Counted from the first letter of the stretch, positions 21,001 to 58,152 are shown. The stretch: 64,000 nt of DNA from an uncultured Elusimicrobia bacterium (GCA_964508565.1 CAZDUB010000005.1:9756-73755), one strand, 5' to 3'. Program-made: numbers and translations. Notes: generated by a model from the sequence alone, not told the origin.

Positions 21001-23335
21001 TTCAAGGACATTCGTTTATGATATAACAAAACCAACATCTGTTATAAACTTGCCATCACTTTCTTACTATACAGACAATCCAGCTGCTTCACCAATGATG
21101 CAGCTTCCTTTAATTACAGGCACAGCATTTGATCAGTTTGGTATATCAAAAGTAGAAGTATTAATAAGGGACCTAACTTCAGGTTCAACTTATTGGACAG
21201 GAAATTCTTGGGTTGACTATGAGCCTTCTGACTGGCCAGATGCCGCTGGTACAGAGTTGTGGCAGTTTACTTCAACACCGACTTGGGAGTCTGGAAGACA
21301 GTATAGGATTTATTCAAAAGCAAGAGATGTTGCAGGAAATATTGAATCTCGTGGTCCTGCTACAGCTTCTGTTTATGATAGAACATTTATCTTTGACAAC
21401 ACACCACCTGTTTCAAGGATAACATATCCTGAGGATGGTAAGTATTACATATCGCCAACTGTAATTTCAGGGACTGCAGATGATGTTTTAGCTCCTACAG
21501 GTCCGAATAAGTCAGGAATACTTTATGTGAAAGTTATTATAAAACGACTTGATACAAACCAGTACTGGGATGGTTCTGCATGGAGTGGAAATGTTACAGA
21601 ACTTGATACAGTATGGGTTGAAGGAGAAAAAAGATGGTATAGAAACACAGGACTTCCAACATGGGAAGACGGTGTACAATATCAGATACAATGCAGAGCA
21701 TATGATAAAGCAACTAATCCAGAGCCAGAGCCACTACATCCAGGTTCAACCTGGAGATGTGATAAGACAGCGCCACAAGTTTATTTACAAACACCGCTTC
21801 ATAGTTTAACGATGCCACCTGATAAATACTATAGACTCCTTCCAACAATTTCAGGTACTGCGTATGATGCAAATCCTTTAGCCAAAGTTGAAGTAAGGAT
21901 TTGGAGTTATATTGATGGTGGTTTCTGGGATGGAAGCGGTTGGAATATGGGATTACCTCAAGAGAATGCTTGGTTTGTTGTGTCTTCTGCCACACCGCCG
22001 TCTGACTGGACAGTGTGGTATACCACCTTTACTGCTTGGCAGTCAGGATATGTATACAGAGTTGAAGCAAGGTCTTGGGATTCTGCAGGGAATTATTCAA
22101 CAGTTTATTCAACAGCAATATTTAGATATGATACAACTAAACCAGAATCTTATGTTTCATTCCCGCCAAATAGAGCATTTATCGGTGCATTGTCAACAAT
22201 ACAAGGTACAGCAAAAGATTTACCAGAGCCTTCTGGCTCATATTATGGTAATTCTGGGCTTTATAATGTAAGAATTGCTGTAAGAAATAATAAAACAGGT
22301 TATTGGTGGTCAGGAACTGGCTTTACAGCAAACTCTTTAACAGAACGACCTGTAAATGGTCTTTCAAACTGGACATTTGACGAGATAAACTCTGCATCAT
22401 TAGAATCAGGTACTTCTTATTATATTACAACTCGTGCTGAAGACAATGCTGGTAACAGAGAAGATTGGTTCAACATTAGAAGCTCAACGTTTGTGTTTGA
22501 CAACACACCACCGGTTTCAAAAATAGAGTTTCCACAAAATAACGCTGCATATAATACACCATTTACTATACTGTCAGGAACTTCAGTTGATGCAACAGCT
22601 GGTGTAGGTAAAGTTGAGATTTCTATACAGAACCTTACAGATTCTGGTACACCATATTGGAACCATGATTCAAATATATGGGAAGCAAACGCGCCTGTTG
22701 AAAGATGGATTACAATCTCAACTTCAGGTGTTGGTGGTGAAGTTGTAAGATGGATATATCAAAACGCATCAATCTACTGGGCTGATGGTAGAATTTATAG
22801 AGTGCGTGTGCGTGGTTATGACAATGTTTCAATACCAACTGCCAATGTTGAACAAGATCCATTTATATCTTCCCACACATTTATATACGATACAACAAAA
22901 CCGACCTCAACAGTAGTTCAGGTTCGTGTTGCAGGTGAATGGAAGAATATTGAAGAATTGTATTTTGAAAATGTTGAATACATTGGTGGTTCAGCAGTAG
23001 ATAATTTGAATCCTTTAAACAACAGTGGTATTGTACCAAACAGCGGTGTAAAGATTTGTCTGATAAGGGATGAAAACGAAAATGAAGTTATAGATACAGA
23101 TGGTTCCGATTTAATTTACGACTTTGTAAGTTCAACCTGGACAGCTTATTATGGTACAGTTGGTAGCAACAACTGGGGTGTCTGCAGTGGTGGTGAACCT
23201 TCATGGCAGTCACCTGCATTTACAACATCTACCTGGAAGTCAGGAAAACTTTATTTTGTAAGGTCGCAAGCAACAGATAGAGCAGGTAATACACAGGATT
23301 ATGATGTCTCCAACTGGAAGAGATTCTATGTTACA
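2..23335 (+). repeat. Type-A array: ~62 tandem Trp-rich Ig-like modules (~125 aa, ~375 nt period) within the giant CDS
   Basis: I counted 62 occurrences of the I/V-S/T-G-T-A-x-D-type motif (ISGTAND, ISGTAYD, VSGTAVD, ITGTAAD and so on). Consensus by eye: F.yD.t.P.s.i..P......y..l..ISGTA.D..SGv..V.v.i......yW.G..W......W.y.....W..G..Y.v..rA.D.AGN.e. A nucleotide core ACAATTTCAGGTAC recurs, for example at 821, 13541, 13901, 15008, 16994 and 21845. The N-terminal half of the module resembles bacterial Ig domains of the Big_7 type; this family assignment is from memory and has not been searched. Confidence 0.8.
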
Positions 23336-26300
23336 CTACCTGCGAACTCGTTTGTTTTAATACCACAGTTTACTACTGTCGTAGCTGGGACAAAGATACA
23401 GATTACTGTTAAAGCTGCGGATGTAAACGGTGATACTGCAAAGAATTACACTGGAAGAATAAGGTTTACAGTTGATGGTTTGTATCCATCAGGAGCAGGA
23501 CCTGAGTATAAATGGACAAACAGAGCATATCAAGCAGAAGAAGGTTGGTTACCTGATGACTATACATTTACACTTGCAGATAAAGGTGTAAAGACATTCT
23601 ATACAGTACTTGTTGATTCAGAAGCGGTTAATCTTGTCAAAGCAGGTGTAAGAACAATAAGAGTAACTGATATTCCAGGTGATGGTATAGGAAGAGACAA
23701 TATTACAGGTGCTACAACAATTACTGTTGTTCCTGCAGCACCTGAGAAACTAAGAGTGGTTGTTCCTGGTGTATCAAGAGCGGCTGGTGTTGTTGGAGGA
23801 CTTAGCGGTCTTCCTGCAATACAAACTGCAGGTGTATCGTTTGATGTAAAAGTTGATGCTTGTGATAGATACTGGAATGTTGTACCATCAACATCAACAA
23901 ATGTAAGGTTAAATGTTACTGCAGGTTCTGATCCTTACACAACATCACTTCCGCAGCAAAAACAACTTCTTGACGGTTCGGGTTTGCCTCAGGGGACAAC
24001 TACATTTACAATATTCTTTGTACAAAGAGGGAATCAGTGGTTAAGAGCAGAAGATATTGGTAACACAGGCTTCTTATCACATACAATACCACAACCTGTC
24101 CCTGTGAACCCAGCTACTGCAGTAAAACTTCAGGTTATATTACCCGGTGAAACAGCAGAATGGGGTAAACCTCCATATGATACACCAGCAGGTGGTAAGT
24201 TAGGTACACCTACAACACAAATTGCAGGACAAGCTTTTGCAGTACAAGTTAACGCTTGCGATTATTACTGGAACAGAAACGATGCTGTAAACCCAACAGT
24301 AAAACTTGTCACATCTGACAAATACGATGTTGAACCATCAACTTTAACCTTAGTAAACGGTACAACTACATTCTTTGTAACATTGGTTACAGCAGCGTCT
24401 TACTATGCTGAGCTTGGTAGAATGCTTACAGGAACAACTCATTACATATATGCTAATGTCTATGAAGGTATAAACTTATCCACTGGAGTATCCTCAGGTG
24501 TAGTTGTTTTACCTGCAGCTGCTGAAAAGTTGTTAGTAGTTGTACCTGGTGAGATTCCGGAACCTGGTTCTTCAACTGGTAAAGTTGGCATACCTGCTAC
24601 ATTTATAGCTGGTACTACATACTATATTGATGTGTATTTAGTTGACCAATACTTCAATGTACACTCAACTGCAACACAGCCAGTAGTTTCATTAGACATA
24701 TCTCCTTATCCAAATCCAGCAACTTCTATTGAACAAAATCCAGCTGAAGCACAGCTTGTTGAAGGCTACAGACAATTTGCAGTTAACTTCAAAGTTGCAA
24801 CTGGACAGACAAATGGCCCATCACAAAGAAATATTGTAGCAACTGATACAGGAGGTTCAGGGACAAGTTATACTGGATATACCACAACAGCATTGTATGT
24901 TTCACCTGATGTTATCTCTAAATTACAACTAATCGTTCCTGGTGAAACTGTACAACCAGGTATTCCTGAAGGAAAAACTGGTACTCCTACGCCGAGAACA
25001 GCTGGAGTGCCGTTTAATGTAACAGTAAGGTCCTGTGATAGGTTCTGGAACCACAATACAGCAGGAACTATGGAGGTTAAACTTCTAACCTCGGATCCTT
25101 ATGATACAGAACCAGTATTCAATTTAGTTTCAGGACAAAAGATACAGTCGTTGACACTACGTCGTGCAAGACCTACAGGTAATACACTTGACAATGTATA
25201 TGTAGATATTACAGCAGTTGAAACATCCACTACACCAGTTACTTCATCTCATACAGTTTCAGGTATACTTGTTAATCCAAACAATGCAACAAGACTACAA
25301 CTTATACTACCTGGTGAAACTGCAGAACCTGGCCATCCGGAAGGTAAAATAGGTACTATTTCACCAATTACAGCTGGTACACCGTTTACGGTAGTAGTAA
25401 ACTTAGTTGACAACTGGTGGAACAGAGTTGCGTTAGATGAGCCAACTGTAAGAATACAAACACCAAACGATCCTTATGATGTTGAACCTTCAACACAGAC
25501 ACTTCAAGCAGGTCAGTATGTATTTACAAACGCTGTAGCAATAGTTCGTGCTGGAACACATACTATAACTGTTGAAGATGTGGATGGAGTAGCACCACTT
25601 TATATCTCAACAACTTCAAAGAGTTTTTATGTTCCACCAAGAGCAGCATCACAACTACAAGTGCTTGTTCCTAATCAACAAAATGTTGCAGGAAACTGGG
25701 TTGGTTCTCCAAATGGGCAGGCACCTTATGGTAAAAACACAGCTGTTACTCAAACACAAACTGCTGGAGTACCGTTTACAGTTACTGTGAATGCATGTGA
25801 TACATATTGGAACATTACAACAACAAACACTGTCGTCTGGATACAAGTGATGAAGACAGCAGCAGAGATTGATCCGTATGCTGAAGTAGAACCTGGATCT
25901 GTTAACTTAATTAATACAGCAACATTTACAGTTGTTGTAAAAACAGCACAGACAAGAAGAATAAAAGTTACAGATGGTGATGCAGGACTTCTTGACCAAC
26001 TTGGTGAAGTTTTCAATGTACAACCAGCAGCACCTTCAAAGATATTTGTATTACTGCCCGGGGAGGCAGCAGAGCCTGGTTCGCCTACTGGCAAAACAGG
26101 TACACCTTTAATACAAGAAGCAGGTTATTCGTTTATACCAACAGTTCGTCTCGTAGATAACTACTTTAACCCAACAGCAGCTTCACAGGATATCACAGTA
26201 AGGTTGACAACGGAAGATCCTTATGATAGTTATACATATGGAAGTTATATTGATTGTATGATACCTACAAACAACACAGATGCTACACTTTCGGAATATC

Positions 26301-29300
26301 CAACACTTATAACAGCAACAACAATTGGTTGGAGAATCACTGCTGATGATATCTCACCCAATATTTATGAAACATATGTTACAGAAGGAGTGAAAGTAAA
26401 GCCAAGAAGAGACGAGGCGGGTTATGAAAGAAAACTTTTAGTTACTCTGCCAGGTGAAATTTCAGTCTGGGGTAAGCCACCATATAACACAAATACTGGT
26501 GGTAAGTCAGGTGCACCACAGGTAGTAACTGCTGGATTAACCTTCTCTGTAACAGTTTATGCATGTGATTACTACTGGAATAGAATTGATGATACATTAT
26601 TTAACATATCTCCACCTGAAGGAAATCCTGTAGTACAAATTGTAACTTCAGATCCTTATGACACAGAACCTTCAGCTGAACAGTTAGTTGATGGAAGAAA
26701 GATCTTTAACATCACATTGGTAAAAGCAGGAACATTTACAATCACAGCATCTGACATTGACGGCGTTGGAATTTATTATCAGCCCTACACAACGGTTATA
26801 TCAACTTGCCAGCCAAATGTTGCAGTGAAACTCTTAGCTGTTCTTCCTGGTGAAACTTATGTCCCAGGTTCTGCTACAGGTAAGACAGGAACACCGCAAG
26901 TGTTTACAGCAGGAGTACCATTTAATATAACTGTATACGGTTGTGATGCTTACTGGAACTTACAACCTAACGCAGTTGCGCTAATAAGAATCACTGATTC
27001 TGATATTTACAACTCAACACCTGCTGCAACTTCATTAGTCAACGGACAAGCAATAATACAACATACATTTGTCACAGCAGCTACACATTATATCCTTGTT
27101 GAAGATATTGACGACAGCCCGCTTGCAAGCTATACAGTTGCTGTTGTTACTGTTACAGCTAATGCACCTACAAAACTACTTGCGGTTCTTCCTGGTGAAA
27201 CATACAAACCTGGGAAATATAATATACTGCCTTATGGTAAAGATGGGACACCTACAACACAGACAGCTGGTGTTTCATTTGATGTAACGGTTTATGCTAC
27301 TGATGACTACTACAACAGAACTTCAACATTTGTAGCTGTTTGGATAAACACACAAGATCCATACGATGTTGAACCTTCAACACAAAACTTACTTGCAGGC
27401 ACAACTGTATTTAAGTTAACATTTGTTTCAGCAACAGATTCTTTGAACTGGAACAATGTTGGTTGGAACATAGCAGTTACAGCAAATACGAATTTACAAA
27501 CTTATACTTCAGCTAATATACCTGTTGTTCCGAATTCGTCAACATTGAATGATAGAATACAGGTATTACTACCTGATGAAGTTGCACGACCTGGTAAACC
27601 ACCATATACTGACTCAACTGGTGGTAAGGAAGGAACAGTACAGAATACCACAGCAGGTAGTGATGTTCTTGCAAGAATTTATATCACAGATTACTACTGG
27701 AACAGAAGGACTGATAATGTAACAAATATTAACCTGTCCTGTGTTGGTTTCCAGGACTATGAAGGAGATGGTAAAACACCTAAGTTTGTAACTTTAACAA
27801 ACGGTACATCTGAATATTATCTTGTGTTCCACACTACAGGTAGCTGGAATATAAATGCCACACATAGTGATTATTTAAGTTATAACAGCTCAGTTATAAA
27901 TGTAGCTCCTGCTGCTGCAAAGAAACTTTTGGTCGTACTGCCTGGACAAGAGATATCGCCACTTAAACAAGAAGGAAGAAAAGGTACACCACAAAATGCA
28001 ACTGCTGGCGTAGGATACAATGTTAAAGTTTATGCATGTGATGAATACTTCAACTATCAACCAGTAGAAGTTGCATCCTCAACAGTTCGCCTTACAACTT
28101 CAGACCAGTTTGACCAGGAACCTTCAAACCTTGTTTTGCAAAACGGTACAACTGTATTTACTATTATACCGGTAACCGCTGGGACACAGACAGTAACTGT
28201 AACTGACCTGACTTCACCAATTATGGTTCCAAATACTTCTTCAATATTTACAGTTGTACCAAACAGTGCAGCAAGGTTGTTAGTATTAGTTCCAGGTGAA
28301 ACGATATTGCCTGGTTCACTAACTGGTAAACAAGGAATACCTGTTATACAAACAGCAGGTGTTGCTTTTGGTTGTACAGTCTATGCAACAGATTTGTACT
28401 TCAACCCAACAACTGACAGAACTGACTGGGTAAGAATTGATACTTCGGATAAATGGGACATACATCCTTCAACACAACAACTTGTAAACGGAACAACAGT
28501 TTTCTTTGTTACATTTGTCACAGCAGGCGAGCAACAACTTTATGCAGTTGACACTGATGCTCCATATTTACAAACATCTACAAGTTCAGTTATAACAGTC
28601 CAACCAAAGACAGATGTTTTATCTGAACTTAAACTCCACATAATAGTACCAGGTGAGACATACGAACCTGGCAAATGGGAAAATGGTGTAAATCCTGTGC
28701 CTTATGGTAAGATAGGTTCACCTACACCACAAGTTGCTGGAAACAACTTTACAGTAGATGTTTATCTTGTAGATAAATTCTACAACAGGGTGTACTCAGG
28801 AGTACCAATGCCATGGGTACAATTGGTTAAAGTTGGAGATTACGATCCATACGCAATCTATCCTTCATCACAGCAGTTAATAAATGGTGCAACAACATTT
28901 GTGCTACAATTTAGAACTTCAGGTTGGGGACTAGTTCCTTCAAGTTGGACAATTACAGCAAGAGATATTGATGGTACAGAACCAGCATATCCTGACGCTG
29001 TATCGCCAAGAATAGTTGTGCAACCAAACATTGCAAAGAAACTGCAAATAATACTGCCAGGTGAAACATGGGTGCCTGGTTCAAATGAAGGTAAGACAGG
29101 TACACCTGAAGTTTGGGTTGCTGATTCAACAAGAACAATCACAGTACAAGTATGTGATGACTACTGGAATGTTACAAATACGAATATTACTGCTTTACTT
29201 ACAACTGAAGATCCGTTTGACACACCAGATCCGCAATCGTTGGGTATAACAAACGGAAGAATCTATGTTGACAGAAACTTAGTTACAGCAACAACTGATG

Positions 29301-32300
29301 GCTGGAGAATCACAGTTTCTGCTTCTGGTTTAATTGAATATGTTTCACCTAAAATTGTTGTAAATCCAGGCGAACCAGTGAAACTGCTTGCAGTTGTACC
29401 TAATGAGATATATTTACCAGGTTCGCTAACTGGTAAAACAGGTACAGTGGTACCACAGCAAGCAGGAGTTCCATTTACAATAGCTGTATATATCACAGAT
29501 AGCCGTTGGAACCTTGTAACCTCAACAGCAGCGTTAATACAGGTTGAAACTGAAGATCCATATGATATTACTCCTTCTGCTAAATCTACAACAAACGGTA
29601 TGGCTACATTTGATATTGAGTTCAGACGAGGTGTTGGTGAGCAATATAGGATCATCGTTTCAACTGCAGCAGGCAACAATTTACAAAAATATGTGACTGT
29701 ACCAATCCAGTCAAATCCTGGTCCAGCAACAAAACTGCAAATATTAGTCCCAGGCGAAACAGCAGTGCCTGGTAAGTGGGATACTTATGGTAAAATTGGT
29801 ACACCGAATGTCTGGTATGCTGGAGCACTTTATCCAGTAGTTGTGAATGTAGTTGACAAATATTGGAACCCAGTACCTACTGTTAACACAACTGTTAAAC
29901 TTACTGCTACAGATCCATACTACGAACCACCTTCTGATGCACCAACTACAAACGGTACAGTTACAATTTATACCTCACTTGTGACTGCGACAACTGAAGG
30001 TTGGAAAATAACAGCTTCAACTGCACCAGCTGCTGCAAATCCGTACTTAACTTCTGACACATCGCCTAATATCAGAGTATTACCAGGTCGTGCTGTGAAA
30101 CTTTTAGTTTTAGCACCCGGTGAAAAACCACTACCAGGTTCACCAATAGGTAAACAAGGTACACCTGTTGTTCAAGTTGCAGGTTCGTCCTTCACAGTAA
30201 CAGTACATGCAACAGATAGCAGATGGAATATCGCAGAATCTTCACATGTAATAAGAGTTACAACGGACGACTTATACGACACAGAACCCTCAACACAAGC
30301 ACTTATTACGACAAATGAATATTTAAGCATTGCGACATTTACATTAACACTTATAACAGCAAATCGTGGGCCGCTTGATCCGCAAAATAGAAATACAACA
30401 ATTACAGCACACGATGTAACTGAAGGTATATCTGATACCGAAAGATTAACTTCAGGGAATACCATTGTTCCTGTTTCACCTCAAGCAGCACAGTATCTAA
30501 TATTGTTAGTCCCAGGGCACACACATAATCCTGGTAAACCACCATATTATCCTGAAGTTGGTGGTAAAGATGGTACACCGCAGACACTTACAGCAGGAGT
30601 TACTTATTATGTCACCGTTGCAGCTTGTGATTTATACTGGAACATAAATCCAGCTCACAACCCACTTGTGAAAGTTTGGACTTCTGACCCATACGATACA
30701 GACCCCACACCGCTGGGGCTTGAAAACGGAATGAAACAATTCCCGATAAACTTAAGAAGGGCAACATTATATCAAGGTTTACAAGAATCTTTGACTATTT
30801 ATGCAATACACAATGCTGACCCACAACAATACGCAGCTGCACAGGTTGGTGGTATACAGGTTTCGCCAGAGCCTACAGCGATACAACTTTTAGTCCTTGT
30901 ACCTGATCAACAACACGAACCAGGTTCAGTTTTGGGCCGTACCGGGCCCGTATCACAACAGGTTGCAGGTGTTGGATTTGATGTAAGAGTATATTGTGTT
31001 GACAGGTTTAACAACATTGTACCTATAGCACAACCCGGTGTAACACTTACATCTTCTGACCCCAACGACGGTGTTGGTGCTGAAACAGGTATTGGCTGGG
31101 ATCCAACTTATCAACCATTACTTAATGGAACAACTGTATTTAGAGTTACACTTGTGACAGCTTCAACCTGGCATTATCTTACTGCTGAAGATACTGATGG
31201 TAATCCACCATATTATGGAAGAAGAGATTCGTCTTTAATATATGTAAATCCGGGACCCGCAGTTAAGCTACAATGCTTACTACCAGGTGAAACACCAAGA
31301 CCTAATACTACAAGAGGTAAAGAGGGCACACCTCTTACCCAAGTTGCAGGTCAACCGTTTAATGTGACAGTCAAAATCACAGATATACTCTGGAACTTAG
31401 TACCTTCAGCAGGTGCAAATGTTAAACTTATAACGCCTTATGACGACTATGATGATGAACCCACACAGTCAACAGTGAATGGTGAAGCAGTAATTGAAAA
31501 AGTTATTTATACTGCATCACAAGAGAGGAATGATACAAATCCACCATATTGGGAACCTTATAAATACCATATAATTATAGCAACAGATACTGGTGGATTG
31601 TACTTAACAAATGTTTCTTCAACATTTACTGTTACTTCTTCAACATTTACAAGGTTACATGTGATACTGCCTGGTGAGAAATATGTGCCTGGTAAACCAC
31701 CATATTATGGTAGCGGCGGTAAAGAAGGAACACCAGTTGTACAAACAGCAGGTGTACCTATCTCTGGTGGGACAATTATCAGGTCAGGTACTACAATTTA
31801 CTTCAATGTAGCTGTCTTTGCAGTTGATAATTACTACAACTTAGTATATTCAGGACAACTTGTTTCTATACAAACAACAGATCCTTATGATTCACATCCG
31901 TCCCCACAAGCGCTGAATTTAGGTTATGTAAACTTTGCAAATGTTGCAATGGTGACATCTTCAAGTTGGACTATAAAAGCATCTGCTTCTGGTGTGTCAG
32001 ATGGTATATCCTCTCCTGTGTTCATTAGACCTAATGTTCCATCAAGGTTAGCTATTTATGCACCAGGTGAGATACCAACTCCTGGTTATACTGCAGGTAG
32101 AGGTAGAACAGGCACTCCTATCCCACAAACAGCAGGCTTAACATTTGGTTGTACAGTTTATGTCTGCGATGCGTATTATAACCCAACATCTTCAGAACCA
32201 GTTGTTACATTAAAAGTTGATGATTGGGATATAGATAATCAGGTTTATAGAATCATAAGGACACAACAACTTATTCAAGGTACTACTGTATTCTTTATAA

Positions 32301-35300
32301 AGTTAGCAGCAGCAAAGATTTCTGTGGCTTCTGTTACAGCAAGCGGTTTAGCAATGGATTATACTGGTGGTATACAAGTAAATCCTTCTACACCTTATAG
32401 GTTATTAATACTACCTCCTGGTGTAACAGCAGAGCCTGGAAAACCACCATATGTTTCTTCAGAGACAGTTACAATGGGTGGTATAAACGGAACGCCATTA
32501 GCACAAACAGCAGGTGTCCCATTCAACATTACAGTTCGTGCGGTTGACCAATGGTGGAACAAAACTTCAGCACAGCCAATAGTAACACTTGAATCAAACG
32601 ACCCATGGGATTATCCTACACAACAACAGGTTCAACTTGTAAACGGTGAGTATACTTTAAGTTGGACACTTGTTACAAGAAATGATACTGGTTGGTATAT
32701 AAGAACAGCGAACTCTGTTTCACCAACACTTGTATCTTACAGAACTGCAAATATACCTGTAGTTTCTAACACAGCAACTTCACTTAAGATTTATCTACCA
32801 GGAGAGTATCCAGAATGGGGTGAAACTTCAAGTAATCCTTCAGCAACAGTACCTTATGGGATATCTGGTATACCGCAAGACTGGACCGCAGGTGTACCAA
32901 GACAAGTTGTAGTTGCAGCGGTTGACAACTGGAACAACAGAAACGATAGCGATGTTTCGCCGGTGAAACTCACACCAACAGATCCGTTTGTTTCAGCACA
33001 GACATATGGATTAACTAATGGTTCTGCAACATTCACATTTACATTAGTTACAGCAGGCACACATACATTTGTTGCAGAAGACCAAGAAGCCCCGCTGCTT
33101 AATTCTTATTGTTCTTCAGTATTTACAGTAAAAGTTTCAACCTGGGGTAAACAGCTACATATAACCTTACCAGGTGAAACATATGTCCCAGGTCGTCCAC
33201 CATATGATGTTGATGAACAAAACAGGATTGGTGGTAGTGGGGGTAAAACAGGTACGCCATTAGTACAGACAGCTGGTGTACCATTTGTGGTAACAGTTCG
33301 TGCAGTAGACTCATTCTATAACTTGCTTACTGATGAAGTTTCGCTCGTAAGAGTAACACCTTCAATTTCAAACTACGCAGCTGACATTGGCCAGCCTTAT
33401 GAAGGATACATAGTTGAACCGCAAGAACAATCATTAGTTGGTGGTGTTTCAACATTTACAGTAACACTGCTTACTGCACACTCAACATGGACACTTACAG
33501 CAGAAGATGTAGATGCAACTCCTACACTTGCAAAAGGTCGTGCAAAGGTTTATGTCAAACCTAACAATCCAGTGAAACTTCAAGTGATTGTACCTGACGA
33601 GGTTGAAAATCCAGGTTCATCTTTTGGTAGAATAGGTTCAGTTAGAACACAAACTGCAGGTGTTGGATTTACAATAAAGGTGAACCTCTGTGACCAATAT
33701 TGGAACCGTGTAAAAGAAGGTTCAATGCCACTTGTTTCTATCTGGAGTTCTGACCCGTATGATGTGCATCCAACAGCGTTAACACTTGTAAATGGTCAAA
33801 GGTTGTTTAATGTAACACTTGTAACTGCTTCTTCAGTAACAATTACTGCGTCTGGTGGTGGATATACTATCGGAGTTTCTTCACCTATACCTGTCATACC
33901 AAATGTTCCAGCAAAACTCCTTGTTGTTGTACCACCACAACAACAGGTTAATGGTAAAAATAACTCACCTGAAGGTAGAACAAATGTTGCTGTATCTACA
34001 CAGACAGCAGGTGTACCGTTCCAGGTGCAAATCTATGCAGTTGATAACTACTACAACTTTGTCTCAACTGTAAACCAAACAATTACAGTTACAACTTCTG
34101 ACGATTACGATACAGATCCTGGCAATGTCACAATGGTAAACGGTGTTACTACTGCTACAATTGATTTTAGAACCGCAAAACCACAAACAATAACGGCAGT
34201 GGATAATGATCCTAACAGTCCAAACTTACAATCTCATACTTCATCTTTGATACCTGTACAACCCAATGTCCCAAAGAAGTTACATATTTGTGCAGCTGGT
34301 GAGGTTTATGATCCGGGCAGGCCTCCATATATACCTGGTTCAGCTGTTGGTGGCAAACAAGGGACACCGTCAAACCAAACAGCAGGTACTTCGTTTAATG
34401 TTGTAGTAAGAATTACGGATGATTATTGGAACTTAACTTCTGTTTTACCTTCAGGAGTAACTGTACAGATTAACACAAACGATATTTATTCGCCATCTAA
34501 TAATACACAATTTGTATTGTATTCTTCAGCTGTAATTTCTGTAACTTTAGTCTCAGCATCTTCATCTACTGCTGATAAAGTTATTTATGTTGAAGATATT
34601 GACGGTGTTGACCCAACATTATCTTTAGGTAGGACACAAAACATATTTGTAGGGCCTGGAACACCAACAAAACTATTGCTTGTCTTACCAGGACAGACAC
34701 TTGTAGGTGGCCATCCAAGAGGTAAAATTGGTACACCACAAGTTATAACAGCAGGGCAACAGTTTACAGTGACAACAGCTATAACAGATGCTTACTTTAA
34801 CCCTGTACCTGGTGTCTCTGTAACATTACAAGCTGACTCACCACTTGACAACTATGATTCAGAACCTTCACCTAAAAATGTAGACACTGTTACAGGTAGA
34901 CAATACTTTGATTTCACACTTGTTACAGCAGCAACACATTACTTAAGAGTACGCGATGTTGACGGTGTACCCCCACTTTATCAAGAGTATCCAGCAAATC
35001 CTTTAGATCTTGTTGTTTCCACATTTACAGTAAAACCAGCAAATGCTGTAAAACTTCAACTTATATTACCTGGTGAAACACCAGTTGCTGGTAAATACAA
35101 TGTTGCACCTTATGGTAAGACAGGATATCCTACAAACCATGTTGCAGGTGAGTTGTGGTATGCAACAGTTAGGTTAGTAGATGCTTATTATAACTTAGTA
35201 ACAGATGTTTCACCACAACCTCAAGTTGCAGTACGCACAGCTGACCCGTTTGATATAGAACCATCTACAGAACCATTGACTTCAGGTCAAGGTGTATTCC

Positions 35301-38300
35301 CAATCGTGTTAAGGACAGCAGCAACCTGGCACTACTTAGTTGCTGAAGATGTGGACGGTATTGACCCACAATATCAGTCAGATGCTTCACCAATGTTTAC
35401 AGTAGAACCTTCAACACCTACAAGGTTATTAGTACTTGTACCAAATGAGACATTTGTCCAAGGTTCACCTTATGGCAAGACCGGTACAATTCAAGATTAT
35501 GTCGCAGGACAAAGTTTTGTTGCGACAGTTTATCTTGTAGATGAATACAACAACCGTGTACGCAGTGGCTGGCCAATGCCAAATGTTGGCATTACAACTT
35601 GGGACCCAAAAGATTCTGAGCCATCTCCAAAGATATTAATTGATGGTGCAAACAACTTTACCTTAACACCACTACATGCATCTTCATCTTGGACATTAAC
35701 AGCATGGGATGTTGACGGACAAGAACCCTATTATCAACCAGGTACCTCTTCATTTATCCGTGTATGGCCTAATGTTGTGCATCATATGCATATTGTTGAT
35801 TATCCAACTACAGTAGTAGCTGGGACTGGTTTCTCAGCAAAGGTTGTTTTGTATGATCAATATGAAAACATCGTCTCAACAGGTATAAATTGGGGGAATT
35901 ATGCAAACGCTGGTTATAAAGTAAAATTTGACGGTGAATACTTCACACCGCCACAAACGCCAGAACTGCCAAGTGAATATGATTGGGTTGTATCTGATTA
36001 TGGACAGAGAACATTTAGTGGTATAGTATTAAAGAAAGCAGGACCGAGATGGATTAAAACATATCAAACAAATCCGCTAAATACAACTATATCTTCAGAA
36101 CGGCCTTGTGATCCTAACCCAAACCGTACAGGTGAAGAAGGAGAACACGGATCATTGTATACATACATTAATGTGCAACCAGGACCTCCTGCAAGCTTCT
36201 TTGTAGTTGAGTCTACAGCAACAGCCGGAACTGAGTTTTACGCATACGAAGTTAAAGTGCCTGCAGGAACGAGGTCTGACTGGGGGAAAATTCAGGTAAT
36301 AGCATATCTCTCAGATGCTTACGCTAATATTGTACCATCAAGTGGTGTCCCGGTACAGATAGAATTAATAGAAGTTGTAGGTTCAAGTGGAGTTGTTTCT
36401 TACACTTCGCCGGCTTCTGATTCTACCCTACCTGAACCTGTTTACTATGCGATAACAGATTCTTCAGGTGTTGTTGGTCTTAACCCACCATTGTATTACT
36501 ATATGTCACATAAACTTGGTGATTCAGCGAAAGTGAAGTTCTCAACTGGAACAATTGTTGGTACAACAAGAAAAATAACTACCATTGGTGGAACACCATA
36601 TAGATTAGTAGCATTGAACCCACCGACAGAACTTACAGCAGGTAACGAAACTCCATATATTGTTATCCAAAGAAGAGACGAATTTGATAACCCAACCTAT
36701 CAAGGTGACACCTGGGCACAACTTGTTACAAATTCGCTTGCAAAACAACAACAGCCACAAAGACAGTGGGATTTCCGCAGTGCATCTGGTGCTGATAATA
36801 CACTTGGACCTGATTATGTAATATGGTTCTACAACTCAATTAAATCAACTTCAGTTGCAATAATTTACTACGATGAGATGTCTTCAATACCTGAAGGTGA
36901 AGATGGTAGACCTTCCTCAGGTAAGTGGACCATACAAGCTCAAGCTTTTGGGAATGACCCTGCACGATGGGCAACATTTGACTTGTTAGTAAAACCCGAT
37001 GAGATTGTAAAAGCAGCGTTTGACAATCCACAAAGAAAACTAACCGCTGGTTCACCTAAAGAATATACAGCAATAGGACCCGGTCCTAATGCTTTAGAGT
37101 TTGAAGTTGAACTACAAGATAGGTGGAACAACCCTGTCCGGACAACATATACAGTGACTGTATTACTATCTTCTGTGCGTCAACCATCAAGGTTTAACGA
37201 TTCGTATTCATTCTCGTTATCAAGTCGTGTAGTTGGTGGTCCAGCATACGGCACACCGCCTTTATTTGAAATACCAATTACTTCTTTCACAATAAATGCT
37301 GGAGAGTATTACAAACAGTTCTACTACCTTGATACAAACGCTTCAGAAAACTACGGAATTGCTCCAACTACACACCCTGTTATTGTTGCTACGCCTTTAG
37401 GACAAAAAGGTGATGGTACACCTTGGGTTGCAGCTCAACAATCGGTTTTGATTATGTCGGACAGAATCCGTCGTATTGGTATTTACGGAAAATATTCTAT
37501 ACCGCCAGATACTACATATTTACAAACACTTACAGCAGGTGTAACTTCACAAGCATTTATGCTTGCTACAGAGGACTTCTATGGCAACATTGCACCGATA
37601 CTTGAAGCAGACCTTTCAGGTGATAATCCAAGAAGAATAAGAATAGTTTCCACATCTACTGGTACTGTACAGTTTGCAGTAGGTTCAACTACTACATGGA
37701 CTATAGGCGAAGGTGTAGCATACTTTAAATTAGGCGACAGAACCACAACCTTCTATCTCATAGACACACTTGCTACTGTCCGCTATGGTAGATATGATAC
37801 CACTCATACACTATATGCAGATACTGTTGTAAATCCCGGTATGTGGACAATAGGAACTAGACCTTATAGAGTACTCCCTAACATAGCACACCATCTTGTA
37901 GTGACCACACCACCAAGACGGCTTATTGCTGGCACCACCATACAATTTGACGCTACAGCTTCCGACACATCCACAACTACAGTTTCAGCAAAAGGTGGCC
38001 CAATGGTTATTACAAAGAACGGTCAGCCGACATTTACGGGAATAACCGTACAGATAAGAGACGAATTTGAAAATGTTACAATTTCTACAGAAAACATAGT
38101 ACTATTAGCTGAAGTTTTAGACTCCCCACAAGCGTATGGTTCAATAGACCCAACACAAGATTTGGACAGTGCTGGTTGGACGCTTATGACAGGTGGTGGG
38201 AATATGTTGAATATGTTGTTACCTGCTGGTAATGAGAGCATTACATTTTACTATTTTGATACTGTTACTGGAAGCCATACAGTAAAAGTGTCTGGGAAAA

Positions 38301-41300
38301 CCGCATCTGGTAGAGACATATTACCGCTTTATCAACAACACTACATAACACCAGCTCCAATACAATACTTTACTATCCATCATCCTTTCACACTTTCAAA
38401 TCCGCTTCGTGTACACGAACCAGGCTTACTTACAGTTAAAGCAAGAGATAGGTATGGTAATGTTGCCTCAGGCGATTCTATCAATGGTCAGTGGTATACA
38501 GGTACAATTGTATTTTCACATTCAGGAAATCCTGAAAAAGTCACATTAAAAGATGCATTGAATCTAACTACATATTATACATTTGTGAAAGAAGATGCTG
38601 GAGTATATAACAGATTGCAAATTATTGACCAGATACAGGAAACACTTAAAGTGTTCGTTACTGATTATGCAACAATACAATTGCCAGATGAAGAGCCTAA
38701 CAAGATATATGGGTTTACAGGTGATACATTTAGAGAAGTACCTGTACATTCTGACGGCGATGTTATAACCTGTGGTATAGTGGTAGAACCAGCAGATCTT
38801 GCACCGGTACCTTATGGTGATGATGACAATCCAGAGACTACCTGCGATGATAGTTATGATAAAAAACAAGAATTGCTTGAAGGTACTATCTATCAAGGTA
38901 AGACAGCACTATTTCAAGGAGATGGAAACACCTATGAAAAACCGGCAGCTGTACCTATGTTGCGTTTAAACTTAAGAGTACTACCACCTACCGTAGCAGA
39001 AACAGCAACATGGACACAACTAAGAGTAGATAAAAAAGGTACTGCTTTACCACAGGATGTATGGATTGGATTGTACTACGATGCTAACGGGGACGGTAAA
39101 TTCCAGGGCGAGACAGTACTAGGTGGTACATCACCTGACCCGTTAGTAGCCGTGGGCGAATACGATTCTATATCAAATGCTTGGTTGTTCAAGAATATGT
39201 CGGAGTTCATTTCTGTGGTTTCAAAAAACTACTTCTTATGTGTACGAATCTCTACCGTAGCACAGCCGGGCACATATCTCGGATTAGAAATAAACAATCA
39301 CAACTATCTAACAATGGTAGGTGTGGCTCGTGTAGCAGCAAACAACTTTAGCATATTTACAGACACCTCTGCTATAAAGAGAGAAGAGGCAAAAGTAGTT
39401 TGTGTTGCAGAAGACATTGCTGCTTCGGTTGAGACAACGAGGTCTACAACTGTTTATCAAGGTCAACCTAACGCTGGTATGCTAAGAATAAAGATATGGA
39501 CAAAAGGTTATACTGCATATCTTAACGGATTTAAAATTACACGAACAGGAAGTGGCTACGATAGTGATATAAAAGGTGTTGCATTGTTTATAGATGATAA
39601 CGGTACAGGGGACCCATCTCAAGGTGATGGTATATTCCAACCAGCGTTAGACCGTCGTGTATCTGATTGGGTGAGTTTCTCCACAAGAGCAGCTTTAGTG
39701 TATCTAACTACTACACAAGAGATTTCTCCTTCAACAATTACATATTTTGTTTCATACAAAATTGCTGATTCAGCTTATATAGGTAAGACACACGGAGCTG
39801 CTATAGTTGATGCAGCAGATATAAGATTAGGAGAAGGCGTTGTTTTACCAATACCAGGTTACAATTCTTCTTTAGTAACAGTAATCCCAACTTCAGATGA
39901 AATGAATCTCGTTGATTATAATAAGACACAACCCAACAACTTCTCAATACCTGGTGCTGCAACACAAGGTGATAAAGATGTAGTAGTTGCAAGATTGACG
40001 CTGCAGACATTACAGCGTACAGCAATATGGACAGGATTAAAACTTGACAGATACAATCCAAACAAAGTAAACCAGCCAGAAGATATAGAAAACATAAAAG
40101 TTTACTACGATACTAATGGGAATGGTTTGTTTGACAAAGACATTGACCAACTTGTATCTCCAACTGACAGAAAATATACCTTCCCAGTAACAAAGCTTAA
40201 AGTAGATGTATCGTCCACAGCATCTACTATTTATGTAGAAGATGTATCAAAACTTGTACTATCACCAACAATTGATTTCTCACCATTCCCAGAAACTCCT
40301 GGAAGAGTGGTATTATCTGATGGCTCTGAGAATTTAGAAGTTGTATACTTTAGCGGTGTAGACAGACAACAGAATGCTCTTACAGGATGTCTAAGAGGAC
40401 AAGAAGGTACGCAAGCTCGTTATCATCCAGCGGGCTCAAAAGTTTCAGGTCAGGCAGTGTTGTGGATACTTGGTAACTTCTATGACTTAGGATCTTACAG
40501 AGTAGGACAAGAGATTTTATCTGAATATCCAAAAGATTACTTTATAACCGTTGATATAAGTTATCTTGCAAAAGTACACGAAGCGTCCCAGTTAGGTATA
40601 TCAATAAGGTCTACTGATTATTTCAAAGTAGTAGAACCTGACTTTGTCGCAAACAGGTTTGGTATAATAGGTCCGAAACCGCAAGGTAAATCAGAGTCCG
40701 GTATAGGTTCTATAATGGAATATCCTGATAAAGTTACATTCAAGTTTGTAGATATATCTACAGAAGTTGTAGCTTATCTACAACAGGGAAAAACAAATGT
40801 ACCAGTTGCCGCAGTAGTAGTCTACACAGATCAATCAGAAGCTTGGTGGCAACAACTTAATGTATGCGGAATAGGTACAGCAACAGATAACAACTTATTA
40901 ACTGACGAAATAAAATATGTTAAGATTTGGTATGATGTAAATAATAATGGTTATTTAAACACGGATACAGATATATGTATAGCAACAGCCACATTCGGCA
41001 ATGTAGGAAAACCACTACTATCGCAGTTTGTCTTCCCTGTTGCTCCAAAAATAGTAACACAACAAAGAGCACAATCTGAACGTATATCTCAGAGATACTT
41101 CATAGCAGTTGACATTGAAGAAAACGCATATCCAGAACAAACATTTGGAGTTGCTATAACAACAGTTACAGATATTACAGTATCATTGCCAAACTATGTA
41201 GACACTTCTTCATCAACTATACCATTTGAGACAGTACTAAGAACAATAATACCTTCTCCAAGAATGGTCACAGTAGATGCGCAACCACTCTGGCTTGATA

Positions 41301-44300
41301 AAAATGGCAATGTTATTACTCAACCAATAAAATTAGCAGCACCTATTACAAATGAGGATACAGCAATCCCACTCAATATCTCAGCAGTTGACTATAACTT
41401 GCCGGAATCAGGGTATGTAGTAATGGATAATGAAATAGTTATATATTCAACAATATCTTACCAAGGTTTATTAGGAGTGTCTCGTGGAGTAGAGGGATCA
41501 TTTGTTGGTAGTCACTCTTCAGGTAGCCTTGTAGGATTCTCTGTAGTACAAGGACAGAAAAATGTTCCAATGTTGAAGTTAGTAATGTACTGTAGTGGAT
41601 TCCAAGTACAGCTACCATCTATTAAGTTTGTAAGGACACAACCATCTCCACTTAATGGTGATGATGCAGATATTGCAGCAATTAAAGTCTGGAGAGACAA
41701 TGGAGATGGTGTACTTAATAGAGATCCACAAACCGGTTTCATTTCAGTCGATGTAGAAACATTAGTAGGGCAAGCTAAATTTGGACAATCACCAGACCCA
41801 ACCGCTTCTGCTACTGTTTTACTTAACGATCCGCAATACAATCGTGGTTATGTATTAATAACTACAACACCTACAATTTACTGGGTAACAGTAGATATAT
41901 CACCATCTGCTAAATTTACACATCCACAGATTTCTAACTTAAACGAAGTGTTTGGTATGAATATTCCATTACCTACAAACTTCAACTTAGCGCCTAAAGA
42001 AGCGGGCCACTGGATATCAACATCAACTTCATTAGGTACACCTTCATTCCCAATACAGACACCTGTTCATGCGATAGTCCCCACAGTAGATACATTGATT
42101 GTAGAAGGAGAAGGAATACTTCCTCCTGGAGTTTACCAGAACCAGAAGAATGTAGGAGTATTAAGATTAAACTTCAAAGCAAATAAGAATTCAGTCACAA
42201 TCAAAAAAATCAAAGTAAAAATGGATGGGACAGCTGTGGATGGGGATATAGCATTAGTTAAGGTTTGGAAGGATCTAAACAATAATGGTATATTTGATGT
42301 TGAAGATACTACTAGAACAGCTAAAGGAGAATATCCGGGGCTGATATCTTTTGGTACAGATAGACTCTCAGACAAAGTTGTAGATATAGAGTTAAAAACA
42401 CCTCAAGTTGTAGACGATTCTCCTACAGGCACAAACTTGTTTATAACATTTGACATTGCAGAGTTTGCAAGATTATTCGCAAAATTCTCTGTTTCAATAG
42501 AAGATGAAAGCTATATTACAGTAGAAGTACCAGATAATGTAGAATTCAAAGTTAAACCGATTGTTTCTGGAGAATCAACAATATATGAAGCACCATCACA
42601 AGTTATAGCTCGTGTATATGATTATGCAAAGGATATAGCCAATCAAGGTGGAACATATCAAGCAGAGAAAAATGTGCCTGTATTAAGAATCAAGATGAGA
42701 ACAGATGTATCACAAGCATACTGGACAAGAATAAGATTAGAAAAAACAGGTTCTTCTTCTGATCCGTCTTTACCTTATGGTAAAAATACAGATGTAGGCT
42801 ATATTAAGATATACAAAGATGTAAACTTCAATGACCAACTTGATTCTGCTGATACATTGTTAAACGAAATACAAACAGAACTTGTAGTTGATATATCTTC
42901 AGTTACAAATCCACCATTCTTGATGGTTATAAAGTCTTCTGTGTCATCAGTAGGTATATTCCCACAAAATCAGCCACAGCTATGGGTAAAAGTAAACGAT
43001 GAAATATTTGAATACACAAAAATAACCACAACCACAATAGATTCGGTAGAATATCCAGCACTTTATATTACAAAGAGAGCACATTTAGGCACATATGCTG
43101 CTTACCACTCTTCAGGAAGTATTGTAAGAAAATGTGATATGTATTACTTAAACGACGATCTTAACAGACAAAAAGAAGTTACACTAATTCAACCGCAACT
43201 TATTTCACCAACGCCACAAACATACTTTATCGCTTACGATATAGGTGAAAATGCTATATCTGGGAACGCTGTTGGTGTAAAGATTATTGGTAAAGAAGCA
43301 ATAACCATAGAATATCCTAACGAAGCGTCTCCTATGGTAGAAATTGAGCAAGATTTCAATGGTACAACCGTAGAAAATGCTTTTTATCCTTATGAAACAT
43401 CACTAATAAGAATAAATCCTATAAATGTATACATTACAGCAGAATCAGTTGCTCCTGTACAAGTACCTCAAAGAACAAAGAATGTACCACTTATGATGGT
43501 ATCTATTAATACCGATAGAAACTACATAACAGTAAAGAAAATAAATATTACCCAAACAGGAACAGTTCAAACTCAAGGAGCAATTGGTGGTTATGGCCAG
43601 GGTGATTTATCAGCAGTTTCTCTATGGTTAGACAATGGAGATGGTTTCTTCTCACCAGTGCTTGATATGTTTATTACTTCTGTTACACATCCTACTGTTA
43701 ACTTTAGTGGAGGAGCAGCAAGGTTTACTTTGCCGGATAAAGGGTTGTATATATCCACATCACCTGTGAGATTATTTATAGTAGGTGATATAGGCAAAAC
43801 AGACCTTGCAGGTACCTCAACTAAAGACCACTATGTTGGAGTAGAGATAACTTCATTTAAGTCATTAGAAATAATACCTAATACTGTAGAATCAGTAATT
43901 ACAAACAAATTCCCATTGAGGTCGTCTTTAGTTTTGATTCTTGACGAATATGCACCAAGGGTAATGCCAAGATGGGTTGTCCTTGCGGAAAAGAAAGTAT
44001 GGGTAAATCCATTTGGAGACGGATATCCAGCAATTGATGTAGACGGCGATGGAAAACCTGACCGAGTTAATAGAGACGGAGAAGTGTTTATAGACATTGA
44101 TGGAGACGATGTAAACGACCTTGAAGATTTAGATGGAGATGGCCGCAAAAACGATATTGATTTAGTTGGTGATGGTAAACCTGCAATAGATATGACAGGC
44201 GATGGATTGTTAGATGTTGATTTAAATTGTGATGGCAAACCTGACTCAATAGTACCGGATGTTAATGGCGATGGAATCCCAGAAGTTGATTTAAATAGAG

Positions 44301-45729: not shown

Positions 45730-46356
45730 ATGAAAGTAAAGAGGTTATCTTTATATTTTTTGCTATTTTTTATATTTTGCATCGCAACATTATTTGCTCA
45801 ACCAACTCAATACTCAGAAAAATCAATTTTTAAAGGCTTACCCAAAGGATATTATGCAGCAATTATAACAGATTTTGGACCCATAGTATTTGAACTATAT
45901 GAGGACAAAGCGCCAAAAACAGTAAAAAATTTTGTAGACTTAGCTTTAGGTAAAAAAGAATGGATTGACCCAAAAACAGGTAAGAAAGTAAAAAAAAGAT
46001 TTTATGATGGATTAATTTTCCATAGAGTAATACCAAACTTTATGGCACAAACTGGTTGCCCAAAGGGTGACGGAACAGGTGGCCCTGGTTATGAGTTTGA
46101 GGATGAGTTTAGTCAAGATTTACTTTTTGACAGACCAGGCCGCGTAGCAATGGCAAATCGTGGACCGAATACAAATGGTTCTCAGATTTTTATTACTGTA
46201 GTGCCAACTCCATGGTTGAACATGAGACACACAATTTTTGGACAAGTTGTGAAAGGCCAAGATGTAGTAGAGAGAATTGTTTCTGTACCAAGAGACAGTA
46301 AAGACAAACCGTTGAAGCCAATTTATATAAGAAAAGTTTTGATTAAGAGAATATAA
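45730..46356 (+). CDS. Secreted cyclophilin-type peptidyl-prolyl cis-trans isomerase
   Basis: 208 aa. It has an N-terminal signal peptide ([23 protein letters not shown]|QP). Cyclophilin motifs are [39 protein letters not shown] and HTIFGQVV. The RBS AAGGGGA lies about 7 nt upstream. Confidence 0.9.
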
Positions 46357-46360
46357 TTAT

Positions 46361-47452
46361 ATGAGTGTAAAAAAAGATTATTATGAAATTTTAGGTGTTC
46401 CTAGAAACGCAACACAAAAAGAGATAGAAGAAGCATATAGGCGTCTTGCAATTCAGTATCATCCGGATAGGCATCCTCCAGAAAAAAAAGATGAAATGAG
46501 AGAAAAGTTCAAAGAAATCTCTGAAGCCTATGCTGTTCTGTCTGATCCTAAAAAAAGAAAACAATATGATATGTACGGCCATGCGGGTATAGATAGTTCT
46601 TATACACCAGAAGACATCTTTTCAGGAGTTGATTTTGGTAGCGTTTTTAGAGATATTGGATTTGATAGTGTATTTGAAGACTTGTTTGATTTTTTTGGAG
46701 TAAAATCAAAAAGAAAAGGGCCTCAGCGTGGAGATGATATTGAGATACCTATAACTATTACTCTTGAAGAAGCATTCACAGGAGTAGAGAAACCATTATC
46801 TTTTTATCATACAGTATCTTGTCCTGTATGTAAAGGAACTGGTTCAAAACCTGGTACATCTAAAAAAACTTGTCCTAAATGTAAGGGGACAGGTTATATA
46901 AGTTATTCTAGAGGTTTCTTTAATTTTCAAGAGACATGTCCAAGATGTAAAGGTCAAGGTCAAGTAGTGGATATACCTTGTGAAAAATGTGGTGGGCATG
47001 GAAAAATTAAACAACAAGAAAACATAGTAGTGAAAATTCCAGCGGGAGTAGATAATGGTACATCTATAAGAGTAAAAGGGAAAGGAGAAGCAGGAGTTGA
47101 AGGAGGCCCTTCTGGAGATTTATATGTCTCAGTTAGGATACAACAACATCCTATTTTTGTTAGACAAGGAGACGATCTTTTTTGCAAAATAGAAATACCT
47201 TATCCTATAGCAGTGTTAGGTGGTGAAGTTGATGTTCCCACTATAGACAATGTTAAGATAAAAATGGCAGTGCCAGCTGGTACTCAATCTGGAAAAGTTT
47301 TTAGGTTAAGGGGTAAAGGAATGCCTGACCTTCACACAGGCAGACGAGGTGATTTGTATGTTGAAGTGTCAATAGAGGTACCACAGAAACTAAATGAAAG
47401 ACAGAAAAATGCTCTTCGTGAATATGCAAAAACTTTAAATCTTGATGTATGA
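46361..47452 (+). CDS. dnaJ: Molecular chaperone DnaJ
   Basis: 363 aa. The J-domain reads DYYEILGV...YHPD. There are four CxxCxGxG zinc-finger repeats ([32 protein letters not shown]). The C-terminal domains are typical (GDLYV...PDL...GDLYV). Confidence 0.93.
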
Positions 47453-48180: not shown

Positions 48181-48183
48181 ATT

Positions 48184-49299: not shown

Positions 49300-49357
49300 T
49301 AGTAATTTTGTATTAAATGGAAATTTAGTATTAAAACAAGAAAATATTCTGATAAAA

Positions 49358-49364
49358 AAGGAGG
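49358..49364 (+). promoter_or_regulatory. Shine-Dalgarno site (AAGGAGG) for the acyl-CoA dehydrogenase gene
   Basis: AAGGAGG lies 8 nt upstream of the ATG at 49373, within a 73-nt intergenic gap. Confidence 0.7.
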
Positions 49365-49372
49365 TTTAATTT

Positions 49373-50530: not shown

Positions 50531-50533
50531 AAA

Positions 50534-52530: not shown

Positions 52531-52550
52531 TTTTTAGAGGTGTAAAAAAT

Positions 52551-53757: not shown

Positions 53758-53760
53758 GTT

Positions 53761-54303: not shown

Positions 54304-54305
54304 TT

Positions 54306-58149: not shown

Positions 58150-58152
58150 TGT

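Follow-up and report, generated by a model that had tools for sequence, protein, structure and literature searches.

Fibrillar adhesins and proteins of comparable build (AgI/II, CshA, Bap/RTX adhesins, integrin legs) combine a variable head with beta-sandwich stalk repeats and, for anchoring, a domain at the C-terminus, and calcium-stiffened stalk domains are common among them; the GEVED domain is a stalk-associated domain of the CshA-type fibrillar adhesins (PMC10952558). CBM93 (Pfam BNR_assoc_N, PF14873), which is found in single copy on the catalytic propeller of Bacteroidota sialidases, is a beta-sandwich whose open cleft accommodates sialoglycans; its description mentions no metal (PMC9472817). 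The linear motif Dx[DN]xDGx[ILV][DSTN] occurs in 16 structural contexts that are unrelated to one another, strand-loop-helix and strand-loop-strand among them, and binds Ca2+ in a near-identical manner in all of these, mostly in extracellular proteins (Rigden et al. 2011, PMC3123361). Here we compare with these systems the C-proximal part of a giant gene in a 64,000-nucleotide stretch of DNA (the window) from an uncultured Elusimicrobia bacterium (GCA_964508565.1 CAZDUB010000005.1:9756-73755), giant genes having been reported in the literature as common in Elusimicrobia. This part encodes eight non-identical beta-sandwich modules of an undescribed family, each with an acidic loop, and we read it, at a probability of roughly 0.55, as a conserved chassis of Elusimicrobiota surface proteins, namely a fixed-length, probably Ca2+-stiffened stalk that bears interchangeable heads.

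The giant open reading frame (ORF), which would encode an Endomicrobiia surface protein of more than 15,000 residues, is listed as window positions 56..45508 on the + strand (15,150 residues). Its frame is open back to window position 2, giving at least 15,168 codons inside the window, and hence the gene continues beyond the 5' end of the window, with the N-terminus and any signal peptide outside. The module zone (nt 38891-43951) is in frame and corresponds to residues 12946-14632. A preliminary description, made from the sequence alone, had placed here a third repeat family of eight copies, restricted to the C-proximal ~1,700 residues, and both the restriction and the number hold. Exactly eight copies of a ~155-residue module are present, with a pairwise identity of ~25%; a hidden Markov model (HMM) built from any seven recovers the eighth with E values of 6.5e-15 to 7.8e-34, and the eight-copy HMM finds nothing beyond the eight copies when run against the whole 15,150-residue ORF. 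A strand-plus-loop regular expression ([hydrophobic]-x-[hydrophobic]-[WYFLI]-x-D-(x)-[DN]-x-[DNT]-[GD]) likewise gives eight matches in the zone as against none in the other 12,945 residues, with a mean of 0.02 in shuffles of the zone. Tandem Repeats Finder detects no DNA-level tandem repeat in the zone, which indicates that the copies are old and leads us to reject a recent repeat expansion at the DNA level. The ORF and its modules, with the loop of each (canonical meaning D-x-[DN]-x-[DN]-G), are as follows.

2..45508, + strand: giant ORF, frame open to the 5' window edge, stop codon at 45506-45508
38891..39445, + strand: module M1, residues 12946-13130; canonical loop DANGDGKFQGETV at nt 39080-39118
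39446..39955, + strand: module M2, residues 13131-13300; extended loop DDNGTGDPSQGDGIF at nt 39593-39637 with Thr at position 5
39956..40765, + strand: module M3, residues 13301-13570; canonical loop DTNGNGLFDKDID at nt 40109-40147; mini-domain insert at nt 40301-40450
40766..41539, + strand: module M4, residues 13571-13828; canonical loop DVNNNGYLNTDTD at nt 40934-40972; mini-domain appended at nt 41408-41536
41540..42127, + strand: module M5, residues 13829-14024; loop DNGDGVLNRDP at nt 41696-41728, one residue short of canonical
42128..42649, + strand: module M6, residues 14025-14198; canonical loop DLNNNGIFDVEDT at nt 42272-42310; the module modelled with AlphaFold
42650..43459, + strand: module M7, residues 14199-14468; loop DVNFNDQLDSADT at nt 42818-42856, Asp for Gly at position 6; mini-domain insert at nt 42980-43126
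43460..43951, + strand: module M8, residues 14469-14632; loop DNGDGFFSPVLD at nt 43631-43666, one residue short of canonical

The module is widespread, whereas the set of eight is characteristic of one phylum. A HMMER scan over 1.84 billion representative proteins gives the module profile 1,747 matching proteins at E <= 1e-3, of which 236 reach E <= 1e-30; the homologue search with the eight-copy alignment gave no matches, and the single-sequence query did. A family consensus was derived from 1,027 module instances in the best 150 of the 1,747 proteins. It reproduces the conserved motif order of the preliminary description, with Q5 (82%) and G6 (75%) in the leader, then G35 (87%), followed by DI..VK.[YW].D.N.NG.F and by YF[VI]..DI...A, with A117 at 86%. 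Exactly eight is by far the commonest number of modules (at least 39 proteins among the matches listed), and the eight-module blocks among these matches span 1,250-1,700 residues and are followed by a C-terminal tail of ~300 or ~510 residues. Sixteen exactly-eight clusters were looked up, and all 14 that carry a source name belong to Elusimicrobiota (Endomicrobiia, Elusimicrobiales); their annotation is limited to 'hypothetical', 'FN3 domain-containing', 'VCBS repeat-containing' or 'T9SS type A sorting domain-containing'. Other copy numbers (3-26) are found in Planctomycetota, Wallbacteria and Latescibacterota as well.

The position of a module within the block is also conserved. A given window module best matches the module of the same rank in 16-25 of 38 eight-module homologues, as against ~5 expected by chance. 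Five Endomicrobiia relatives, known from metagenome-assembled genomes, are 76-83% identical, and the four with DNA across the whole zone possess all eight modules with one gapped column in total over block and tail. The eight modules are inherited as a fixed set in which each position has its own identity. The degree of conservation as such does not set the zone apart in these close relatives, the upstream arrays being 82-86% identical and the individual modules 63-91%. An origin of the eight from a 4+4 duplication, suggested by the positions of the inserts (M3/M7, after M4/after M8), was considered and is unsupported by position-specific profile comparison, the scores of the corresponding pairs (M1-M5 73, M2-M6 104, M3-M7 118, M4-M8 87) lying below that of M6-M7 (161). 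The regions in front of the block vary among homologues, comprising NHL propellers, FG-GAP/VCBS repeats or Laminin_G_3 domains, and in the window Big_13 arrays; those behind it are constant and consist of fn3 and a C-terminal domain resembling FlgD_ig/Por_Secre_tail. As judged from these sequences, the Elusimicrobiota architecture is an interchangeable N-terminal head, eight modules, FN3 and an FlgD_ig/T9SS-CTD-like end.

The most conserved element of the module is the acidic loop, and its first Asp, present in 93% of the 1,027 instances, is the top conserved residue of the whole module. In the same instances, position 3 is N or D (81%), position 5 is N or D (76%), with Asn commoner than Asp, position 6 is G (74%), position 8 is F, L or Y (84%) and position 9 is D, N or E (68%), whereas position 12 is not conserved and the conserved distal Asp is at position 13 (70%). 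The family consensus thereby follows Dx[DN]xDGx[ILV][DSTN], and what the module has in common with the calcium loops of this type is the linear D-x-[DN]-x-[DN]-G-x-[hydrophobic]-[DN] pattern, the extracellular setting and the strand-loop-helix context; it differs from them in the more frequent Asn at position 5 and in the distal acidic residue at 13 rather than 12, and in being canonical in only 37% of the family. The remaining instances have a relaxed version (19%), a loop one residue shorter (10%), other Asp/Gly-rich spacings (30%) or no Asp (4%). The preliminary description had held that an Asp/Asn/Gly loop matching the 12-residue EF-hand/dockerin pattern occurs in all eight window modules. 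A loop does occur in all eight, but only those of M1, M3, M4 and M6 are strict and fit positions 1-3-5-6-8-9 of the EF-hand pattern D-x-[DNS]-x-[DNS]-G-x-[ILV]-x-x-x-[ED], the ligands of which are at 1, 3, 5 and 12. The M7 loop (D-V-N-F-N-D) has Asp instead of Gly at position 6, the M2 loop (D-D-N-G-T-G) has Thr at position 5 and is followed by an insertion, and the M5 and M8 loops (D-N-G-D-G) are one residue shorter.

The likeness to dockerins and EF-hands, which the preliminary description had also drawn, stands for the linear motif and not for its structural context. In the AlphaFold2 model of M6 (eight-copy alignment), a beta-sandwich of ~nine strands with a predicted local distance difference test (pLDDT) value of 83 and a predicted template modelling score (pTM) of 0.76, the loop lies between a strand at residues 41-49 and a short helical turn at residues 58-60, with a local pLDDT of 87-90 and one loop per module. 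As the loop sits in a strand-loop-short helix within a beta-sandwich, with neither helix-loop-helix nor paired loops, an EF-hand or dockerin domain proper is rejected; searches of the module for dockerin and EF-hand in Pfam and among PDB sequences gave non-significant matches only.

In the four Endomicrobiia relatives that span the zone, every module keeps its own loop variant, the non-canonical ones included, which indicates that each loop is under purifying selection in its own form. On the strength of the motif we consider Ca2+ binding likely, with somewhat better than even odds for the canonical loops. The loop could alternatively be a tight turn without metal, an Asx turn with Gly that serves the folding of the beta-sandwich, the modules then being plain spacers like Ig or FN3 repeats. 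We regard this as unlikely. In its favour, the family does not keep one loop spacing (canonical in 37%, shorter by one residue in 10%, different again in 30%), half of the eight loops in the window deviate, Asn prevails over Asp at position 5 and position 12 is not conserved. Against it, the first Asp is the most conserved residue of the module, the residues at positions 3, 5, 6, 8 and 9 follow a Ca-loop pattern that is strongly predictive in extracellular proteins (PMC3123361), and the deviant loops are still acidic and preserved in their own form in close relatives. A separate Asp-rich run with DGDG sequences directly after M8 also suggests a Ca-rich environment at this site.

No named family accounts for the module, in agreement with the preliminary description, which could not name one. 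No Pfam model covers the module in the window and NCBIfam has no match on the zone; the only matches are to GEVED, through the loop alone, and to BNR_assoc_N, borderline and in homologues. GEVED (PF20009) is likewise a domain of large surface adhesins. Of the 78 positions of its profile, 2-22 align, all on the strand-plus-loop segment 'vkvW.D.N.nG.fd', and this suffices to bring the whole zone above the cut-off (28.2 bits), whereas M6 alone scores 17.5 against a cut-off of 24.4; a partial match of this kind occurs in 8 of 50 diverse modules. Because the GEVED motif and the rest of the domain are absent and the likeness is confined to a segment of ~20 residues, we reject the assignment of the module to GEVED. 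BNR_assoc_N matches neither the window zone nor any of its eight modules, but does match the N-terminal half of the module in the homologues P0053 (32.9 bits for the whole protein, cut-off 25) and P0024 (16.8 bits), and gives sub-threshold matches in 3 of 50 diverse modules. PDB sequence searches, whether started from the eight-copy profile, from a family profile of 50 sequences or from one module of a homologue, returned only non-significant loop matches (a dockerin-type protein, FrpC and a fimbrial protein).

Structure comparison points in the same direction as BNR_assoc_N. The top 12 Foldseek matches of the M6 model in the PDB are all N-terminal domains of Bacteroidota GH33 sialidases (entries 4fj6, 6mrx, 6mrv, 9db6, 7qy9, 6mnj, 4q6k, 7qxo), with a probability of 1.00 but an E value of 1.6e-3, a template modelling (TM) score of ~0.5 and a root mean square deviation of 5-10 Å. 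The same domains recur as neighbours of a two-module M6+M7 model, and CBM93/BNR_assoc_N is the sole consistent structural neighbour of the module, albeit a weak one. Four sialidase N-terminal domains, the B. thetaiotaomicron sialidase (identical to 4bbw over 205 residues) and three PDB sequences, were aligned and compared by hhalign with a 50-sequence module profile. The alignment is co-linear, pairing the leader 'Q..NV..l.L' with 'erQdNVlf..rL', 'DsDIs.VKiY.D' with 'l.DiqsVKlYy' and 'yFI..DIs' with 'nfFWIslqm', at a probability of just 8%. Module and CBM93 (4fj6, 4bbw, 6mrx, 7qy9) are alike in being beta-sandwiches of ~150 residues with the same succession of leader, 'l..i.l' strand, 'DI..VKlYY' and late 'nfFwI', and differ in that the modules form arrays and carry the acidic loop, at the position of which the sialidases have 'YYGGTEALQ'. 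The loop is therefore a family-specific addition and not a known non-metal loop. The preliminary description had allowed that the module might prove to be a characterized domain, such as a known lectin, whose loop does not bind metal; a weak fold match to such a domain was found, and the corresponding loop was not. From the model, the module probably has the CBM93 fold, and it possibly shares CBM93 ancestry; we infer a distant relative of CBM93/BNR_assoc_N or a fold convergent with it. The module is in any case an undescribed beta-sandwich family, set apart from CBM93 by its acidic loop.

Given this neighbour, the modules might themselves be lectins or carbohydrate-binding modules that form an eight-valent Ca-dependent glycan array, in which the loop Ca2+ would contact sugar hydroxyls and the array would bind a target polysaccharide or cell surface, or else the cell's own lipopolysaccharide (LPS) as a tether. 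The sialoglycan-binding CBM93 of T. forsythia NanH and its relatives as sole consistent neighbour, and the BNR_assoc_N matches in homologues, speak for such an array, as do the eight distinct and individually conserved positions, which would be expected if each had a ligand or partner of its own, and the LPS biosynthesis and transport genes directly downstream. We nevertheless think it improbable that this is the primary role of the modules, since the similarity to CBM93 is barely detectable (a TM score of 0.5 and 8% probability in hhalign) and the conserved Arg-rich cleft of CBM93 has no evident counterpart in the module, whose conserved columns are mostly hydrophobic core, Gly/Pro turns and the loop. 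Moreover, CBM93 has no acidic loop and no metal has been reported for it, its ligand is a sialoglycan (PMC9472817) while nothing in the modules indicates one, and typical binding domains (NHL, FG-GAP, LamG) are already present in the heads of homologues. Contact with glycans, of the own LPS layer or of a target, is possible as a secondary role.

The reading of the zone as a stalk accommodates these observations as follows. Eight non-identical ~155-residue beta-sandwich modules, joined by short ordered linkers, would form the conserved chassis, and in each of them the loop between strand 3 and the short helical turn would most likely hold one structural Ca2+, as expected for an extracellular protein. 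The eight modules, stiffened by one Ca2+ each, would then keep the variable and probably adhesive N-terminal part at a distance from the outer membrane, acting as a rigid spacer of set length, and export or anchoring would fall to the C-terminal domain. The preliminary description had suggested a basal stalk beside the anchor end, and this fits the architecture, the position-specific conservation, the near-absence of insertions and deletions in close relatives and a confidently modelled linker. In the AlphaFold model of M6+M7 (12-sequence alignment; pLDDT 79.6, pTM 0.63), linker residues 150-180 have a pLDDT of 77-86, and the structural neighbours also comprise tandem beta-sandwiches of the stalk type, namely integrin alpha legs, the C-terminal domains of AgI/II and the Ig domains of PrgB. 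The zone departs from fibrillar adhesins in one respect, in that their stalk repeats are usually near-identical and variable in number, whereas here they are ~25% identical, position-specific and fixed in number across the phylum.

Several points weigh against the stalk reading. The strict canonical loop is found in just four of the eight window modules and 37% of the family, with 30% having other spacings and 4% no Asp; the loop could therefore be a conserved acidic turn without metal, or could hold metal in some modules only. Ca2+ ligation at the predicted site, which in this loop class involves side chains 1, 3 and 5 and the carbonyl of residue 7, is presumed from the motif, and surface location, C-terminal anchoring and export route from domain types, the signal-peptide region being outside the window. 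A pTM of 0.63 from 12 sequences is modest evidence for rigidity, and CBM93 is only weakly linked to the module (a TM score of 0.5, 8% probability in hhalign and no match among PDB sequences).

The block may be more than a spacer. Together with FN3 and the C-terminal domain, the eight modules could form a phylum-specific display device of fixed geometry, a Ca2+-dependent ruler or lattice element built from a new Ca-binding CBM93-like family, in which each non-equivalent module would contact other modules, neighbouring molecules or LPS. We consider this doubtful; if true, it would define a new system of surface architecture in which heads, giant or small, are exchanged on the block. That the eight form a higher-order object instead of a linear stalk, either a closed or helical super-domain or a Ca2+-bridged homo-oligomeric lattice resembling an S-layer sheet, is very improbable, as related proteins of the same and other phyla with 3-26 modules imply that the module itself needs no set of eight and a 4+4 internal duplication is unsupported. 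For such an object speak the constant number of eight across Elusimicrobiota, with each position keeping its identity, which is unusual for stalk repeats because their number as a rule differs, the one gapped column that the four full-span relatives have between them, and the acidic loop on every module.

With a fixed-length stalk as the preferred reading, ~1,700 residues of a giant protein gain a concrete interpretation as an undescribed beta-sandwich family, with a probable Ca2+ loop, that occurs in no fewer than 1,747 representative proteins, and Elusimicrobiota share a fixed eight-module chassis that bears different heads (NHL, FG-GAP, LamG, Ig arrays). We found no description of the module in the literature on Elusimicrobia giant genes within the searchable library, and the proteins are annotated as 'hypothetical'. 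What is gained is a domain definition that can serve annotation, a hypothesis, open to testing, that rigidity depends on Ca and that the spacer has a fixed length, and a handle on how uncultured Elusimicrobiota display giant proteins on an LPS-bearing outer membrane. No new principle is involved, as head-stalk-anchor adhesins with Ca-stabilized stalk domains are well known; new are the unmodelled family and the unusual, position-specific set of eight.

The C-terminal end of the ORF contains three further elements.

44012..44323, + strand: Asp-rich run directly after M8, residues 14653-14756 (104 residues, ~23% Asp)
44618..44737, + strand: degenerate fourth copy of the mini-domain in the tail (DIYVGGEIMYYETK...PAQDHPVYTKV), with no PHROG match
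45242..45463, + strand: C-terminal FlgD_ig/T9SS-CTD-like beta-sandwich, below the Pfam cut-off in the window and above it in homologues

The Asp-rich run, a feature of the window's subfamily, matches D-x-[DN]-x-[DN]-G strictly at five sites, has additional 'GDG' variants and resembles the loops of TSP3 (thrombospondin type 3) and EF-hands; its only Pfam match is a non-significant one to EF-hand_5 (E 0.88). It is probably a second, independent Ca-binding element. The mini-domain (~45 residues) occurs as an insert in M3 and M7, as an appendage to M4 and once more in the tail, with the general motif '..E.i.Y......l.g..RG..GT.a..H..Gs.v', which in M3 takes the form 'v.l.dg.e.v.y......l.gc.RG..GT.a..H..Gs.v'. 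It occupies the same positions in closer homologues and is absent from compact ones (blocks of ~1,250 residues). It also accounts for the extra length of the ~260-270-residue modules, in which the variable beta region named in the preliminary description is not longer. Weak matches of the mini-domain are to Pfam Rcc01698_C, the C-terminus of a gene-transfer-agent host-specificity protein (E ~1e-3), and, among the PHROG families, to those of phage tails and tail fibres (E 4e-4 to 2e-3), and its BFVD fold matches are phage tail proteins. Membership of the C-terminal domain was assessed with the models PF13860, PF18962 and TIGR04183. The window C-terminus scores 22 bits for FlgD_ig (cut-off 27) and 14.7 bits for TIGR04183 (cut-off 23), while the homologues P0024 (FlgD_ig, 31.1) and P0053 (Por_Secre_tail, 28.4) lie above the cut-off; one homologue is named 'T9SS type A sorting domain-containing protein' by NCBI.

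Downstream of the giant gene, a first group of genes comprises those for a cyclophilin (PPIase), dnaJ, an rsmE-like gene, a radical-SAM methylthiotransferase, an acyl-CoA dehydrogenase, ymdB and xseA, and a second group comprises kdsD, kdsC, a lipid A acyltransferase, lptC, an lptC-like gene that is probably lptA, lptB, hpf, ptsN and rapZ. These are housekeeping genes of a diderm bacterium, and the host is a diderm with LPS. No conserved neighbour is shared among the gene neighbours of homologues that were compared. The giant gene has a G+C content of ~39%, which falls to 25-30% over the housekeeping genes that follow (window 45730-60000), and the GC skew is strongly positive downstream of the giant gene, so that gene and neighbours contrast in composition. 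In ENA ERZ1300416 NODE_470 (L008 1-20811), the homologous giant gene is called as three consecutive, abutting or overlapping ORFs on the same strand (3861+, 2068 and 1546 residues), which may reflect a frameshift, a fault of the assembly or a real split of the gene within the eight-module block. A scan of residues 1-9980 and 11649-15150 of the window ORF reveals no GH33 or BNR domain, and in residues 1-9980 (window 56-30000) the Pfam matches are to the Ig-like Big_13 and Big_3_2 only. Finally, upstream segments of close relatives match several sites within residues 8100-11500 at 31-37% identity, which indicates that other large repeat families are present there, in line with the type A and type B zones of the preliminary description.

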